The notes under the pieces were generated by a model, which saw only the letters and a list, made by a program, of their open reading frames with translations, was not told where the DNA came from and ran no database searches. A stretch of 16,047 nt of DNA, from positions 6,047-22,093 of the forward strand of contig JAYNIA010000046.1 in assembly GCA_038108555.1 (NCBI GenBank). Reading direction: 5' to 3'. The stretch comes from Nitrospinota bacterium (GTDB lineage Bacteria > Nitrospinota > Nitrospinia > Nitrospinales > VA-1). The first letter of the stretch is position 1. Each line of letters starts with the position of its first letter. Below, piece after piece: positions 12,201 to 15,387 of the stretch. The position numbers and the translations under genes were made by a program.

Positions 12201-12714
12201 TATTCGGACCCATAATTTCCGCATATTGCGCTGCAACTTTCGTAGCACGGGGCACATTCTCACGATTGACATTATGTGCCACCTCCCCACGAATGCAGGA
12301 ACTTAGGGCAATCAATCCTTCTGAATATTCCGACAACAACTCCTTATCAATACGGGGCTTATAATAGAACCCTTCCAGATAACCTTTGGTAATCAACCGA
12401 AGCAGGTTTTTGTATCCCGTTTCATTTTCCGAGAGAAGGATCAGATGGTAAGACGCATCACGCAGATTGTCTTTCGACTTTTTTTCATGTCGGCTTTCCG
12501 GAGCGACATAGACCTCACACCCTAAAATGGGTTTGATCCCGTGTTTTTTAGCTGTGTTGTAAAACTCGACGGCCCCAAACATATTGCCGTGGTCGGTCAT
12601 GGCAACTGCAGGCATCCCAAACTCCACAGCCCTTTTTATGAGGGGTTCGTGACGAATGGAAGAGTCGAGCAGCGAATAGGAAGTATGAAGGTGCAAGTGA
12701 ACAAAGTTGCTCAT
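9259..12714 (-). CDS. dnaE: DNA polymerase III alpha subunit
   Basis: PHP domain FVHLHLHTSYSLLD, GPGRGSAAGS, catalytic PDIDIDF, HAAGVVI, KMDFLGL, YGFNKSH, and a C-terminal OB fold. The start is likely MSNFVHLH at 12714. No intein is evident. Confidence 0.98.
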   Translation of the reverse strand: MSNFVHLHLHTSYSLLDSSIRHEPLIKRAVEFGMPAVAMTDHGNMFGAVEFYNTAKKHGIKPILGCEVYVAPESRHEKKSKDNLRDASYHLILLSENETGYKNLLRLITKGYLEGFYYKPRIDKELLSEYSEGLIALSSCIRGEVAHNVNRENVPRATKVAAQYAEIMGPNNFFLELQNHGLENQDRINKEIIGIGKKLDIPIVATNNCHYLNKEDFRAHEILLCLQTGKTISDPYRMQYPAPEFYFKSPQEMMELFKETPEAIENTLRIAERCELELEFDKLNLPDYPVPESYTLETYLEEISRKGLQDRFEELEKLGIDFDKSIYEKRLEEELGIIQRMGYPGYFLIVWDFIKHAKEQDIPVGPGRGSAAGSVVAYALKITDIDPMQYDLLFERFLNPERVSMPDIDIDFCMDGRDDVIKYVTEKYGGNQNVTQIITFGSMNAKGVIRDVGRVLDMTYGEVDKLAKLVPNKLNITLDDAFKEEKQFASLRKENEKVGELLDIAKSLEGLQRHCSTHAAGVVISSKALTEFCPLYKGGNDEVVTQYAMGSVEKLGLLKMDFLGLRTLTVIHNALKLIKQSQGKDLDISMIPLDDPETYKLLCDARTLGVFQLESSGMRDLLKKLKPDCFEDIIALLAMYRPGPLESGMVDDYVKRKHGTMELKFDLPQLRDILKETQGVILYQEQVMKIASVLAGFSLGDADLLRRAMGKKKPEEMAAQREKFMAGSEVNKIDLKKAEKIFDLMEKFAGYGFNKSHSAAYAQVSYQTAYLKAHYPLEFFGALITSDMDNTDKVLRYIHDCREMKITVQPPDVNLSHRDFSVSDNKLVFGLGAIKNVGSKAIDNIIEARKELKKFNSLSQLCESVDLQLANKRVFESLIKSGACDSLGQSRAQMLKDLQASMEQGQKKQRDRALGQTSMFDTFEEDVAPENGNGTPAEEWSEADRLKFEKESIGFYITGHPLDRFTKDLSWFTDATSASVAESGSSKTVSIAGIPIKHLPKTTRKGDKMGIITLEDLHGSIEVILWPEIYAKVESILLAEEPILVKGEVDSEGNMPKVIAKEVFPLIQAKQRFQGRVMIHFRTLGLEKETLLAVKDILAANKGNNDTRLHFISPDNKERVVTVSEDLRIQPSDEVIEQIQSLLGEDAILFE

Positions 12715-12885
12715 AATGGATTTTATAACCCTTTGCGAACTCCAAATCAACAGGTACCAATAAAGGCCAATAAATCAATACGTCAGAAAATAAGTCGCTC
12801 TTTTTTGCGCCGATAAAGGGTTCCCCGTTTCAAAACCAGATTCAGCAGCTCTTGATCAACATATCTTTTTCTAATTCCAAAAGAG

Positions 12886-12921
12886 GTAAAAAAATTTTTT
12901 AAAAGTTTAAAAAAAAATTAC
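12886..12921. promoter_or_regulatory. Candidate paired upstream activator sites, cassette 1
   Basis: GTAAAAAAATTTTTTA (12886-12901) and TTTAAAAAAAAATTAC (12906-12921). Centres are 20 bp apart, at about -125/-105 from the predicted sigma-54 start, the same positions as in cassette 2. Confidence 0.4.
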
Positions 12922-12991
12922 CCGATCAATTTCCAATCAAAAAAAAACATCATTTTATACGAATAAAAGAAGGATTAAGACACCCAATTTC

Positions 12992-13008
12992 CTGGCATGG
13001 ATTTTGTA
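12992..13008 (+). promoter_or_regulatory. Sigma-54 (RpoN) -24/-12 promoter, cassette 1
   Basis: CTGGCATGGATTTTGTA versus consensus YTGGCACGRNNNTTGCW, with correct spacing and the -12 GC varied to GT. The identical 17-mer recurs in cassette 2 while its flanks diverge. Confidence 0.75.
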
Positions 13009-13068
13009 ATACTAAAACCAATTGGTAGTTTTTTTATTCTTGGTTCTATTTTTGAAAGGAAAAATAAA

Positions 13069-13476
13069 ATGAAAACATATACGGAAGTAAAAAAAATCAC
13101 GGTTTTGGTTGCAATGTTTTTGGCAGGTTTCCTTGTTTTGGCAAACGGAGCCCTTGCTGGCTCTAACCATTTTGAAGAAGAAATGGCAGTGAAAGGAATC
13201 ACAGAAAATGCTGAGCATCGCAGTGGTCTGGGAACGGGCGAAAAAGGATTAACCCACCATCGAACTTTTTCCTCCCCAAAAATGAGATCTAATGTGGATC
13301 ATTTTGTTGAAGAAAGGGCCGCTAAGGGGATCGCAGATAAACCTGAGCATATTCATGGCCTTGGAACGGGTGAAAAGGATGCAGTTCATGGAAACACGGT
13401 CTTTCCATCAACAAGGGACACATACAAAGGCCTTTTTGATGAAGAAAGAATGGTTAAAGGGATACATAAAGATTAA
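13069..13476 (+). CDS. Secreted His-rich protein with 44-aa tandem repeats (135 aa)
   Basis: AAGGA RBS 8 nt before the ATG at 13069; the ORF-track start at 12997 lies inside the promoter. Sec-type signal peptide ending ALA. Repeats begin at 13168, 13300 and 13432. Confidence 0.8.
   Translation: MKTYTEVKKITVLVAMFLAGFLVLANGALAGSNHFEEEMAVKGITENAEHRSGLGTGEKGLTHHRTFSSPKMRSNVDHFVEERAAKGIADKPEHIHGLGTGEKDAVHGNTVFPSTRDTYKGLFDEERMVKGIHKD
13168..13473 (+). repeat. Intragenic 132-nt (44-aa) tandem repeat, about 2.3 units
   Basis: HFEEEMAVKGITENAEHRSGLGTGEK / HFVEERAAKGIADKPEHIHGLGTGEK / LFDEERMVKGIHKD. Units 1 and 2 share 19/44 residues, ungapped. Confidence 0.85.
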
Positions 13477-13496
13477 AGACAACAAAATAAAGAATA

Positions 13497-13550
13497 CACT
13501 TTTAACTTGGATCCTACTCAAATAGAACCAAGGGAAAAGTGAGAGTAGGA
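13497..13550 (+). ncRNA. Conserved structured 3'-UTR element, cassette 1
   Basis: CACTTTT-aa-CTTGG can pair with CCAAG-gg-AAAAGTG, and TCCTACTC with GAGTAGGA. AAATAGAACCAAG (13520-13532) is complementary to the 5' UTR at 13039-13051. The element is conserved in cassette 2. Confidence 0.55.
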
Positions 13551-13553
13551 AGG

Positions 13554-13588
13554 AAAGGCCCCGGATAATTAGCTTCCGGGGCCTTTTT
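13554..13588 (+). terminator. Rho-independent terminator, cassette 1
   Basis: AAAGGCCCCGGA-taattagct-TCCGGGGCCTTTTT, followed by further T's. Confidence 0.92.
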
Positions 13589-13702
13589 AGTTTTTTGCAT
13601 AACCTCTTACCAACATCCACAAACAGATTAACAATTTTTAATTTTCCCTTTCTAGTTGTTCAACCTTAAAAAGTTAACCGCAAGAAAGACAGTGCAGAAA
13701 TT

Positions 13703-13739
13703 AGAAAAATATTTTTCAACAAGTAAAATTTTTTTTACA
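13703..13739. promoter_or_regulatory. Candidate paired upstream activator sites, cassette 2
   Basis: Perfect palindrome GAAAAATATTTTTC (13704-13717) and AGTAAA-N6-TTTACA (13722-13739). Centres are 20 bp apart, at about -126/-106. Confidence 0.5.
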
Positions 13740-13809
13740 ACCTTCCTACTCCCCCTCCCTGAAATATCAATTTTAAGCCAAATAAAGCAGGGTTGAGGCG
13801 GAAAAAAGT

Positions 13810-13826
13810 CTGGCATGGATTTTGTA
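13810..13826 (+). promoter_or_regulatory. Sigma-54 (RpoN) -24/-12 promoter, cassette 2
   Basis: CTGGCATGGATTTTGTA, identical to 12992-13008. Confidence 0.75.
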
Positions 13827-13891
13827 CTACTGTTAGGCAATAGGTAATTAATAAATTTATTCTTGGTTCTATTTTTGAAAGGAAAAATAAA

Positions 13892-14026
13892 ATGAAAACA
13901 TATAGCGAAGTAAACAAAATCACAGTTTTGGTGGCAATGTTTTTTGCAGGATTCCTGGCTTTTTCAAATGCGGCAATGGCAAATCCAGGGTTATTTGTTG
14001 AAGAAATGGCAGTAAAGGGAATCTAA
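13892..14026 (+). CDS. 44-aa small protein MKTYSEVNKITVLVAMFFAGFLAFSNAAMA-NPGLFVEEMAVKGI (signal peptide plus 14-aa mature peptide)
   Basis: Absent from the ORF track. Same RBS as cassette 1. 31/44 aa identical, ungapped, to the N-terminus of 13069-13476, with 9 synonymous codon differences. Tandem TAA TAA stops. Confidence 0.75.
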   Translation: MKTYSEVNKITVLVAMFFAGFLAFSNAAMANPGLFVEEMAVKGI

Positions 14027-14052
14027 TAAAATTCCCAACAAGAGAAAAAATA

Positions 14053-14104
14053 CGCTTTGAACTTGGACCTGCTCTAATAGAACCAAGTTAAAAGTGAGAG
14101 TAGG
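14053..14104 (+). ncRNA. Conserved structured 3'-UTR element, cassette 2
   Basis: CGCTTT-g-AACTTGG can pair with CCAAGTT-a-AAAGTG, and CCTGCTCT with AGAGTAGG. AATAGAACCAAG (14076-14087) is complementary to the 5' UTR at 13862-13873. Confidence 0.55.
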
Positions 14105-14107
14105 ACG

Positions 14108-14139
14108 AGGCCCCGGAGAGTGAACTTCCGGGGCCTTTT
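14108..14139 (+). terminator. Rho-independent terminator, cassette 2
   Basis: AGGCCCCGGA-gagtgaact-TCCGGGGCCTTTT. Same stem as cassette 1 with a diverged loop. Confidence 0.92.
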
Positions 14140-14397
14140 GATTTTTGGAATAACTCTGATTTCACCCTGCCTTTAATGATTAAATTTCTTTAATGAAACC
14201 ACCTTATAAACCAATTCAACAAAGATTATTTTTTGTATCTTTTCCTCAAATAAATGATCTAATAATTAAAACAGGGAATCAATTCAACCTGGGGCAAAGA
14301 AAATGGCCACCCAAAAAAATGTAAGGAAACCTACCAACGAGTTGTCTGAAAATCACTTTGATGACAAGCCCTTTCTTTAAAAGATGAAAGTGGTCTA

Positions 14398-15387
14398 TTG
14401 GTCAACGACCAATTCGTAAGCGAAGGCCCCAAAATAAAAAAAATCAAGGACAAGATCCATCTGGTGGCAGATACCGATGTTGCCATTCTCATTCAGGGAG
14501 AAACCGGGACAGGGAAAGAATTGATCGCCCAGGTGATCCACGATAACAGTGAAAGAAGAAATGAAAACTTCGTGAAAGTAAATTGTCCCGCCATCCCCCG
14601 AGAACTTTTTGAAAGTGAGTTTTTTCGCCATATCCGTGGCTCTTTCAGTGGGGCCGTCAGCGACCGGGTCGGAAGGTTCCAACTGGCGGACCAAGGCACC
14701 CTGTTTCTGGACGAAATCACAGAAATCCCCCTGGACCTCCAAAGCAAACTGTTGCGCGTATTACAGGAAGGACAGTTTGAAAGGGTTGGAGAAAGTGAAA
14801 CCCGATTTATCGATGTCCGGGTCATCTCTGCAACCAACCGGGACCTAAAAAAAGAGGTCGAAGCCGGACGTTTCCGGGAAGACCTTTTTTACCGGCTGAA
14901 TGTTTTCCATTTAAACATCCCACCCCTGAGAGAACGATTGGTGGATATTGATCTTCTTTTTGACTACTACCTGAGGGTTTTCTGTGAAAAATATAAAGTT
15001 CCGATTATTACTCCCACTTCCTCGGATCGAAAAAAATTGAAAAGCTATTCCTGGCCGGGAAACGTGAGAGAACTGAAAAACATGCTGGAACGCGCTGTCA
15101 TTCTGTGCCGGAAAGATCCCGACAATTTCACCCAGGTCCTGGATGATCTCATGGGAAACATGGAACAGGAATTTCCCCAGTTCACAGATTCAGAAAAAAT
15201 CGTTGTCTCGAAGGAAAGCGACCTACAGGATTTGAACAAGGAAAACATTCTGAAAGCTCTCAGTGCGACAAACTGGAAAATATCCGGGGATCGGAGTGCA
15301 GCCCAGTTGCTGGGGGTAAAAGAAAGTACTTTGTGGAAACGAATCAATAAGCTGGGACTGAAAAAACCAAAAAATGTAGATATTTAA
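14398..15387 (+). CDS. Sigma-54-dependent Fis-family transcriptional activator (bEBP), AAA+ plus HTH, no N-terminal sensor domain
   Basis: Walker A GETGTGKE, ESEFFRHIRGSFSGA (GAFTGA variant), Walker B LFLDEI, LQSKLLRVLQ, FREDLFYRL, WPGNVREL, and a C-terminal HTH AAQLLGVKESTLWKRINKLG. The start is uncertain (in-frame TGA at 14362). Confidence 0.92.
   Translation: MVNDQFVSEGPKIKKIKDKIHLVADTDVAILIQGETGTGKELIAQVIHDNSERRNENFVKVNCPAIPRELFESEFFRHIRGSFSGAVSDRVGRFQLADQGTLFLDEITEIPLDLQSKLLRVLQEGQFERVGESETRFIDVRVISATNRDLKKEVEAGRFREDLFYRLNVFHLNIPPLRERLVDIDLLFDYYLRVFCEKYKVPIITPTSSDRKKLKSYSWPGNVRELKNMLERAVILCRKDPDNFTQVLDDLMGNMEQEFPQFTDSEKIVVSKESDLQDLNKENILKALSATNWKISGDRSAAQLLGVKESTLWKRINKLGLKKPKNVDI

Follow-up and report, generated by a model that had tools for sequence, protein, structure and literature searches.

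As given in the portions of the reports that were available, few bacterial interactions between the 5' untranslated region (UTR) and the 3' UTR have been tested, namely, those of RNAIII, icaR, and hbs (PMC7821165), and long-range intramolecular pairing across hundreds of nucleotides has been reported in vivo in Bacillus subtilis (PMC12697547). The closest known case to the one described here is the B. subtilis hbs mRNA, in which a 14-bp UTR-UTR helix masks an RNase Y site and is protective (PMC5737220). In ColIb-P9 rep (repZ), a long-range pseudoknot just upstream of the Shine-Dalgarno sequence (SD) activates by keeping the initiation site open (PMC4705826), while the 3' UTR of Staphylococcus aureus icaR pairs with the SD via UCCCCUG and represses (PMC3868564). 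The type I toxin mRNA aapA represses by means of a 3' element that pairs with the SD itself, with hok cited alongside for its 5'-3' interaction (PMC6733600), and in timP a pseudoknot and a long-range helix free the SD (PMC13000454). Our literature search, which was not exhaustive, found no description of the element reported below or of a bacterial pseudoknot that encloses an open reading frame (ORF).

We analyzed a 16,047-nucleotide stretch of DNA from a Nitrospinota bacterium (the window), in which two tandem cassettes are located between dnaE and a sigma54 activator gene. Each cassette has the same plan, with an AT-rich dyad, a TGGCA-N6-TTGT promoter, a 50- to 55-nt leader, an ORF, and a terminator, and all stranded features given here are on the forward strand. 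In cassette 1, the dyad (positions 12885 to 12922), a putative activator-binding site, lies about 100 bp upstream of a promoter (12993 to 13008) that we take, from the consensus, to be of the sigma54 -24/-12 type, and transcription would start near 13019. The leader carries a 5' arm (13039 to 13051) with an upstream UUU-AUU extension (together 13033 to 13051) and an SD-like GAAAGG (13054 to 13059), followed by ORF1 (135 amino acids [aa]; 13069 to 13476) and, downstream of the 3' arm, by an intrinsic terminator-like hairpin (13554 to 13592) that was found by folding and was not flagged by the terminator scan. In cassette 2, the corresponding features are the dyad, again a putative activator site (13708 to 13740), a sigma54-type promoter (13811 to 13826) with a predicted transcription start near 13837, the 5' arm (13862 to 13873) with its extension (13856 to 13873), ORF2 (44 aa; 13892 to 14026), a 3' element (14053 to 14105), and an intrinsic terminator that the scan did flag (14107 to 14143). 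Each gene is likely a sigma54-driven single-gene message. We also observed that positions 13741 to 13756, upstream of promoter 2, are complementary at 14 of 16 positions to segment e of cassette 1 (described below) and its flank, a pairing that could occur only in read-through transcripts.

An earlier, sequence-only reading of this DNA had claimed that the ends of each message are complementary, and this was borne out. In cassette 1, the 13 nt at 13039 to 13051 are the exact reverse complement of those at 13520 to 13532, and in cassette 2 the same is true of the 12 nt at 13862 to 13873 and 14076 to 14087; the stretches lie in the 5' and 3' UTRs of one transcript, the ends of which were placed from the promoter and terminator. 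As also claimed, the 5' arm stops just short of the SD, 2 to 3 nt 5' of GAAAGG, so a helix between the arms (the clamp) would keep the SD free. Relative to the AUG, the arm occupies -30 to -18, or -25 to -13 in a homolog from another genome (G016), where the clamp covers the first G of the SD; across copies the SD starts at -15 to -13, and the stretch from -20 to the AUG takes in 3 to 8 nucleotides of the arm. To the extent that the published accounts could be consulted, this arrangement resembles that of hbs, with a perfect 13- to 14-bp match that joins the 5' UTR upstream of the SD to a stretch before the terminator, in a single-gene mRNA with a free SD. It resembles icaR in that the UTRs would pair in cis and RNase III is available, and it differs from what the available part of that report describes in that the clamp halts before the SD.

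When the UTRs were dinucleotide shuffled, Watson-Crick complementarity of equal length and without mismatch appeared in 1 of 1,000 shuffles for each window copy, in 0 of 1,000 for G016, and in 12 of 1,000 for the metagenome locus L020, where the match is 11 bp. With G-U pairs allowed, the counts were 40, 71, 14, and 15 per 1,000 for the four copies, and by duplex energy they were 3, 45, 4, and 7 per 500. Among 2,454 crudely called ORFs of at least 100 codons in the genome, matches of at least 12 bp between the 55 nt upstream and the 130 nt downstream flanked 5 (about 0.2% per gene), and matches of at least 13 bp flanked 3; ORF1 is absent from these matches because the ORF caller chose an upstream ATG. 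A single UTR match is thus rare, not unique, and could be chance, so the case rests on homologs and conservation.

Two more copies with DNA were found, in G016 (locus L002) and at L020, each as a single cassette at the same locus. By pattern, protein-profile, and covariance-model searches, the element occurs only in the window genome (G000) and G016 among 120 genomes of the phylum, and the metagenome search added at least one locus (L020), which has approximately 500 bp of extra DNA between dnaE and the cassette compared to the window (L020 positions 1620 to 2100). Nine further homologs (P0003 to P0007 and P0011 to P0014; 36 to 60% identical) are available as protein only and stand outside the four-copy RNA comparison. 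There was no match in the viral contigs and plasmids searched. A pattern scan of wider genome contigs gave at least 120 matches over unrelated taxa, which we treated as chance and not as evidence of absence, the pattern being too loose, and we also rejected an RNA-model match, L154 (E value of 0.005), that sits within a long open frame, which we take to be an acetolactate synthase gene. Weak protein matches (L014 to L017 and L019) looked unrelated on reading. Two further loci, L008 and L009, were rejected as homologs and excluded from all counts; the apparent pairing between their ends, 6 and 8 bp long, does not exceed chance (824 and 146 per 1,000, respectively), and neither locus fits the RNA model. 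These loci (L008, 1330 to 1880, plus strand; L009, 1270 to 1830, minus strand) hold genes of genus g20 that have a sigma54 promoter, an AT-rich dyad, and a similar signal peptide, encode acidic low-complexity proteins, and are missing the 3' element, a combination that suggests a shared regulon or swapped cargo.

A 5' block of 16 nt is invariant in all four copies, and column identity in the 3' element is about 91%, while 74 of the 127 pairwise comparisons at 4-fold degenerate codon sites (58%) show the same base, the pairs not being independent. The arms are near-invariant in all four copies despite the roughly 3-fold difference in ORF length (135 versus 44 aa), in agreement with the sequence-only reading, and the loss of complementarity in homologs that would have spoken against that reading was not seen, as G016 and L020 keep both arms. 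Clamp positions 1 to 12 are paired in all four copies, one of them as U-G, and position 13 is U-A in two copies, G-C in G016, and a U-U mismatch in copy 2; the G-C pair is weak evidence because a 3-nt leader deletion precedes it. All three core-stem substitutions are A to G opposite U, a change that keeps pairing only in sense-strand RNA and therefore points to sense-strand RNA. Of the compensatory changes looked for, ones consistent with pairing are present in the four sequences, but covariation in the 3' element does not stand out from shuffles (116 of 500 score at least as high). These substitutions bear on the reading in which the arms act as DNA, as inverted repeats that flank the ribosome-binding site (RBS) and ORF and serve as protein-binding or invertase sites. 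An exact 13-bp inverted repeat of near-invariant sequence would suit such a role, but the A-to-G changes opposite U break the DNA symmetry while keeping the RNA pairs, the orientation is identical in all four copies, and no recombinase was found among the window ORFs examined (nine against Pfam and the others by eye), all of which make this reading very improbable. Contigs of four DNA runs from one study, none of which spans the stretch, contained no joint. Summed over all readings that include it, a selected long-range RNA helix in cis is, in our judgment, the probable explanation of the arms.

We also found that the 3' arm sits within a larger bistable element, overlooked by the sequence-only reading, that consists of segments a to e and has two further conserved helices. 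In cassette 1, segment a (13497 to 13510) is the left strand of a local hairpin and a mimic of the 5' leader; segment b (13512 to 13519), which contains CCU and is anti-SD-like, pairs with segment e (13543 to 13550); segment c (13520 to 13532) is the 3' arm, with its first 8 nt in the hairpin loop as a predicted toehold; and segment d (13535 to 13541) pairs with a in the hairpin and would be the A-rich loop 3 of a pseudoknot. The corresponding segments of cassette 2 are at 14053 to 14066 (a), 14068 to 14075 (b), 14076 to 14087 (c), 14090 to 14096 (d), and 14097 to 14105 (e). Segments a and b presumably resemble the 3' end of 16S rRNA. The potential helices a:(c,d), b:e, and 5' arm:c are conserved in the four copies. 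In the local hairpin, a pairs with CCAAG of c and with d, which hides half of the arm and leaves AAUAGAA of c in the loop, where ATAGAA is invariant and has the 5' arm as its only pairing partner. Because the hairpin and the clamp both use CCAAG, they are mutually exclusive. The leader repeats segment a in register (UUU-3 nt-CUUGG), and this copy together with the looped AAUAGAA suggests a layout for toehold strand displacement. Of the 91 pairing cells of the 3' element, 87.9% pair, compared to 36 to 50% with the partners slid, and one pair changes on both sides. A search of Rfam gave nothing above the gathering threshold, the only match being His_leader (29.1 versus 49 bits), which was driven by the terminator. 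In G016 and L020 an extra hairpin lies between e and the terminator (L002, 1462 to 1500; L020, 2793 to 2815), and both window copies are without it.

Helix b:e has 8 to 9 bp and directly abuts the clamp in each of the four copies; the one base of copy 2 that has no partner in the leader finds one in e. In geometry, the four copies fit an H-type pseudoknot, with stem 1 of 12 to 15 bp, stem 2 of 7 to 9 bp, loop 2 of 0 nt (1 nt in copy 2, where that base pairs within stem 2), an A-rich loop 3 of 8 to 10 nt, and a loop 1 that holds the SD and the ORF and spans 200 to 470 nt. Flank shuffles produced an abutting helix to match b:e in length in 16 to 43 of 5,000 cases and one together with CTTGG in 0 to 4 of 5,000, both in tests designed after the pattern had been seen. 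The hairpin and b:e states have energies of -15.0 and -12.2, -15.1 and -13.6, and -12.6 and -12.1 kcal/mol in three copies (a gap of 0.5 to 2.8), and in G016 the b:e state is the minimum; ViennaRNA handles nested folds and not pseudoknots, and the pseudoknot energy was approximated by adding stacks. Like ColIb-P9 rep, a loop sequence here would pair over a long range with bases immediately 5' of the SD to give a pseudoknot; in the available account of rep, the partner is upstream, formation is triggered by translation of a leader peptide, and an antisense RNA blocks it, whereas in the present messages it follows the stop codon and neither a leader ORF nor an antisense RNA was found. The pseudoknot of timP, as far as its report was available, is in the 5' UTR, unlike the present geometry. 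For hbs, the accessible part of the report describes no competing 3' hairpin or stacked second helix, whereas segment c has two alternative partners, and the decoy strand and stacked second helix thus appear to be the new part of the present system.

Full-transcript folding supported the long-range helix in three of the copies, with a probability at 37°C of 0.80 in copy 1, 0.03 in copy 2, and 1.0 in both G016 and L020. At 4 to 15°C the probability was 0.0 to 0.02 for both window copies in nested folding, which omits the pseudoknot stack; an RNA thermometer was rejected, since only one of the four copies showed temperature dependence. Nested folding prefers the local hairpin for copy 2 and, at low temperature, for copy 1 as well, which would be expected if the 3' element functioned alone, as a local hairpin or a pseudoknot of a:c and b:e that confers stability, with the 5' match as a by-product, and the per-gene chance of a match given above is compatible with this. 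Such a role would leave unexplained both the invariant 16-nt 5' block and the equally invariant ATAGAA of the loop, for which the 5' arm is the sole partner, and we think it quite improbable.

In local folding, removal of the 5' arm lowered the cost of opening the RBS from 4.7 to 2.1, 4.3 to 0.9, 4.2 to 0.6, and 6.5 to 0.6 kcal/mol, or by 2.6 to 5.9 kcal/mol in all four copies, which fits the earlier suggestion that the clamp might activate rather than repress. At -2.6 to -5.5 kcal/mol, the hairpins that form locally at the 5' end have little stability, and their register differs among copies, which leaves a clamp with little to activate. When the full-length RNA is folded without pseudoknots, the unpaired state of the SD drops from 0.92 to 0.42 in copy 1 and from 0.93 to 0.44 in L020, which in these models is consistent with b extending the helix onto the SD when b:e is absent, and the RBS-opening cost shifts in no consistent direction. 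In the duplexes inspected, pairing of b with the SD is weak and secondary (3 to 4 bp).

The drop in SD accessibility in these two copies is among the observations that would favor a clamp that shuts translation off as a folding timer, in which the 5' arm is captured late on account of hairpin a:(c,d), translation proceeds for a time, and closure then covers the U-rich standby site while stacked b:e or b-SD pairing blocks 30S loading. The position of the arm, at -30 to -18 (-25 to -13 in G016), borders the 30S footprint, local folding gives the hairpin ahead of the synthesis of e, and aapA and icaR set a precedent for repression by 5'-3' pairing. However, the 3' element of aapA and icaR pairs with the SD itself and segment c does not, the 3 to 4 bp of b-SD compare with 8 to 9 bp for b:e, and the full-length RBS-opening cost lacks a consistent direction of shift. 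On balance, we regard this shut-off reading as possible but doubtful.

The reading that we prefer, somewhat short of even odds, is that the arms pair in cis as one state of a two-state switch, the paired state shielding the U-rich leader and holding the RBS open. In the predicted order of events, the nascent tail would fold hairpin a:(c,d) first, leaving AAUAGAA of c looped. The SD-proximal half of the 5' arm may then pair with this toehold and displace a, as a carries identical CUUGG and UUU in matching register. Segment b would pair with e and stack end to end on the clamp, for a total of 20 to 22 bp in an H-type pseudoknot, and would thereby be kept, anti-SD-like as it is, off the SD. The finished transcript would be stabilized against RNase E/G, two genes for which are present in the genome, the RBS would be released from weak local pairing, and the stop codon would be brought beside the start. 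A fuller version, in which a long-range H-type pseudoknot loops out the RBS and ORF, toehold displacement of the built-in leader-copy decoy licenses only finished transcripts, and terminating ribosomes are freed beside their own start, is in our view unlikely in its entirety. Thus, of the translational gating in cis put forward earlier, the long-range helix is supported by conservation and by changes that preserve pairing, and the mechanism is one that we infer. Two GGA motifs are invariant in the element, and the genome has a CsrA gene, next to one that we take to be fliW; CsrA as the input to the switch is speculation.

The nucleases encoded here bear on how far the parallel with hbs extends, since the available account of hbs concerns an RNase Y site and the present genome has RNase E/G, RNase III, and sigma54-like transcription. 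They also bear on the view that the arms form a processing stem, an extended nested helix that RNase III would cut in leader and tail, leading to maturation or decay. This helix would reach about 19 bp by adding U-G pairs, an A-A mismatch, and UUU/AAA to the 13 bp, its register reaches -6, UUU/AAA is invariant in all four copies, RNase III is present, and icaR is a precedent. The extension is broken in copy 2 by two U-U mismatches, and the stem is incompatible with the conserved b:e, which it leaves unexplained, so we hold this view to be improbable.

The sequence-only reading had also raised cross-regulation of both paralogs by a 3'-derived small RNA (sRNA), which now appears unlikely and is not needed. 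In such a scheme, the tail (element plus terminator) would be processed to an Hfq-independent sRNA that pairs in trans with its own and the paralog leader. The tail has structure and a terminator at its end, and each arm would bind that of the paralog as strongly as its own partner (-16.4 to -19.3 kcal/mol), but G016 and L020 are single copy and keep both arms, and no sigma70-type promoter was found inside the ORF ends. Hfq (PF17209) was found in 0 of 70 genomes of the family and in 0 of the 32 that are at least 90% complete, in a search whose control detected it in 5 of 14 known genomes. Apart from the arms themselves, no perfect 12-nt site lies close to a start codon; a single additional exact copy of the arm, near position 36062 of contig C1 of the window genome, is 8 codons inside a 272-codon open frame and is possibly a chance site or a trans target. 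Weighing these points, we give an sRNA acting in trans little credence.

The sequence-only reading had overlooked both the sigma54 promoters and the dedicated activator gene (14398 to 15387), which encodes an AAA+ domain with a GSFSGA loop and a Fis helix-turn-helix, and no receiver domain by Pfam. The TGGCATG of the promoter is invariant in the alignment, rpoN is present in the genome, and a similar AT-rich dyad lies at equal distance in the four copies and in L008 and L009. We found an ortholog of the activator (86% identical) in 1 of 16 other genomes of the genus, the one that bears the cassette, and the gene is adjacent to the cassette in L020 as well. Since the close ortholog co-occurs with the cassette, the activator likely drives both cassette promoters, as far as can be judged from gene content. 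The window activator seems to be frameshifted near 14375 (14303 to 14398), where an ATG-led 25-codon frame stops as the conserved frame starts, while those of G016 and L020 are continuous across the corresponding N-terminal stretch; it also has R where G016 has G just ahead of the GSFSGA loop.

The ORF1 product has a signal-peptide-like N terminus and three xF.EE...KGI repeats with low-confidence linkers between them. ORF2 is a truncated paralog of proteins of 116 to 137 aa and encodes, in 44 aa that include a hydrophobic stretch, a signal peptide with an AxA pattern and one repeat, for a predicted mature peptide of 14 residues. The products are thus probably secreted, given their Sec-exported look. 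Searches of Pfam and NCBIfam found no family for ORF1, neither ESM Atlas nor AlphaFold yielded a family or a confident fold (top Atlas score, 0.89; pLDDT, 55.8; pTM, 0.19), and no longer fused relatives were found, which is weak evidence. The family is small; clustering at 50% leaves 7 representatives, and clustering at 90% leaves 11 proteins. The closest named homolog carries a Nitrospinae annotation. It is an unnamed family of exported peptides with one to three xF.EE...KG(I/F/V) repeats and disordered, often His-rich linkers, and the product may be a signal, a metal-binding peptide, or a precursor peptide. The messages would share alternative folds and end-to-end pairing with the type I toxin mRNAs aapA and hok and with timP, but the parallel with hok and aapA fits poorly against the published parts of their description that were available, because an anti-SD is missing from the 3' arm and the product has the look of a Sec-exported protein, with a signal-peptide-like N terminus and homologs of 116 to 137 aa. 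Consensus scans found no minus-strand sigma70 promoter or terminator in 12700 to 14450 and no Rfam match that would point to an antisense antitoxin RNA.

The system is compact, with a predicted message of 306 nt in copy 2 and of 572 nt in copy 1, and it encloses ORFs of 44 to 136 codons. With its apparently built-in decoy and stacking helix, it would offer an easy test of whether end-to-end pseudoknots can couple completion of a transcript to its stability and to re-initiation, and it may be a portable frame for synthetic expression. Its general weight is limited by its narrow distribution, in 2 of 120 genomes of the phylum. For the organism, the element is a candidate for post-transcriptional control in an Hfq-less lineage of marine nitrite oxidizers.
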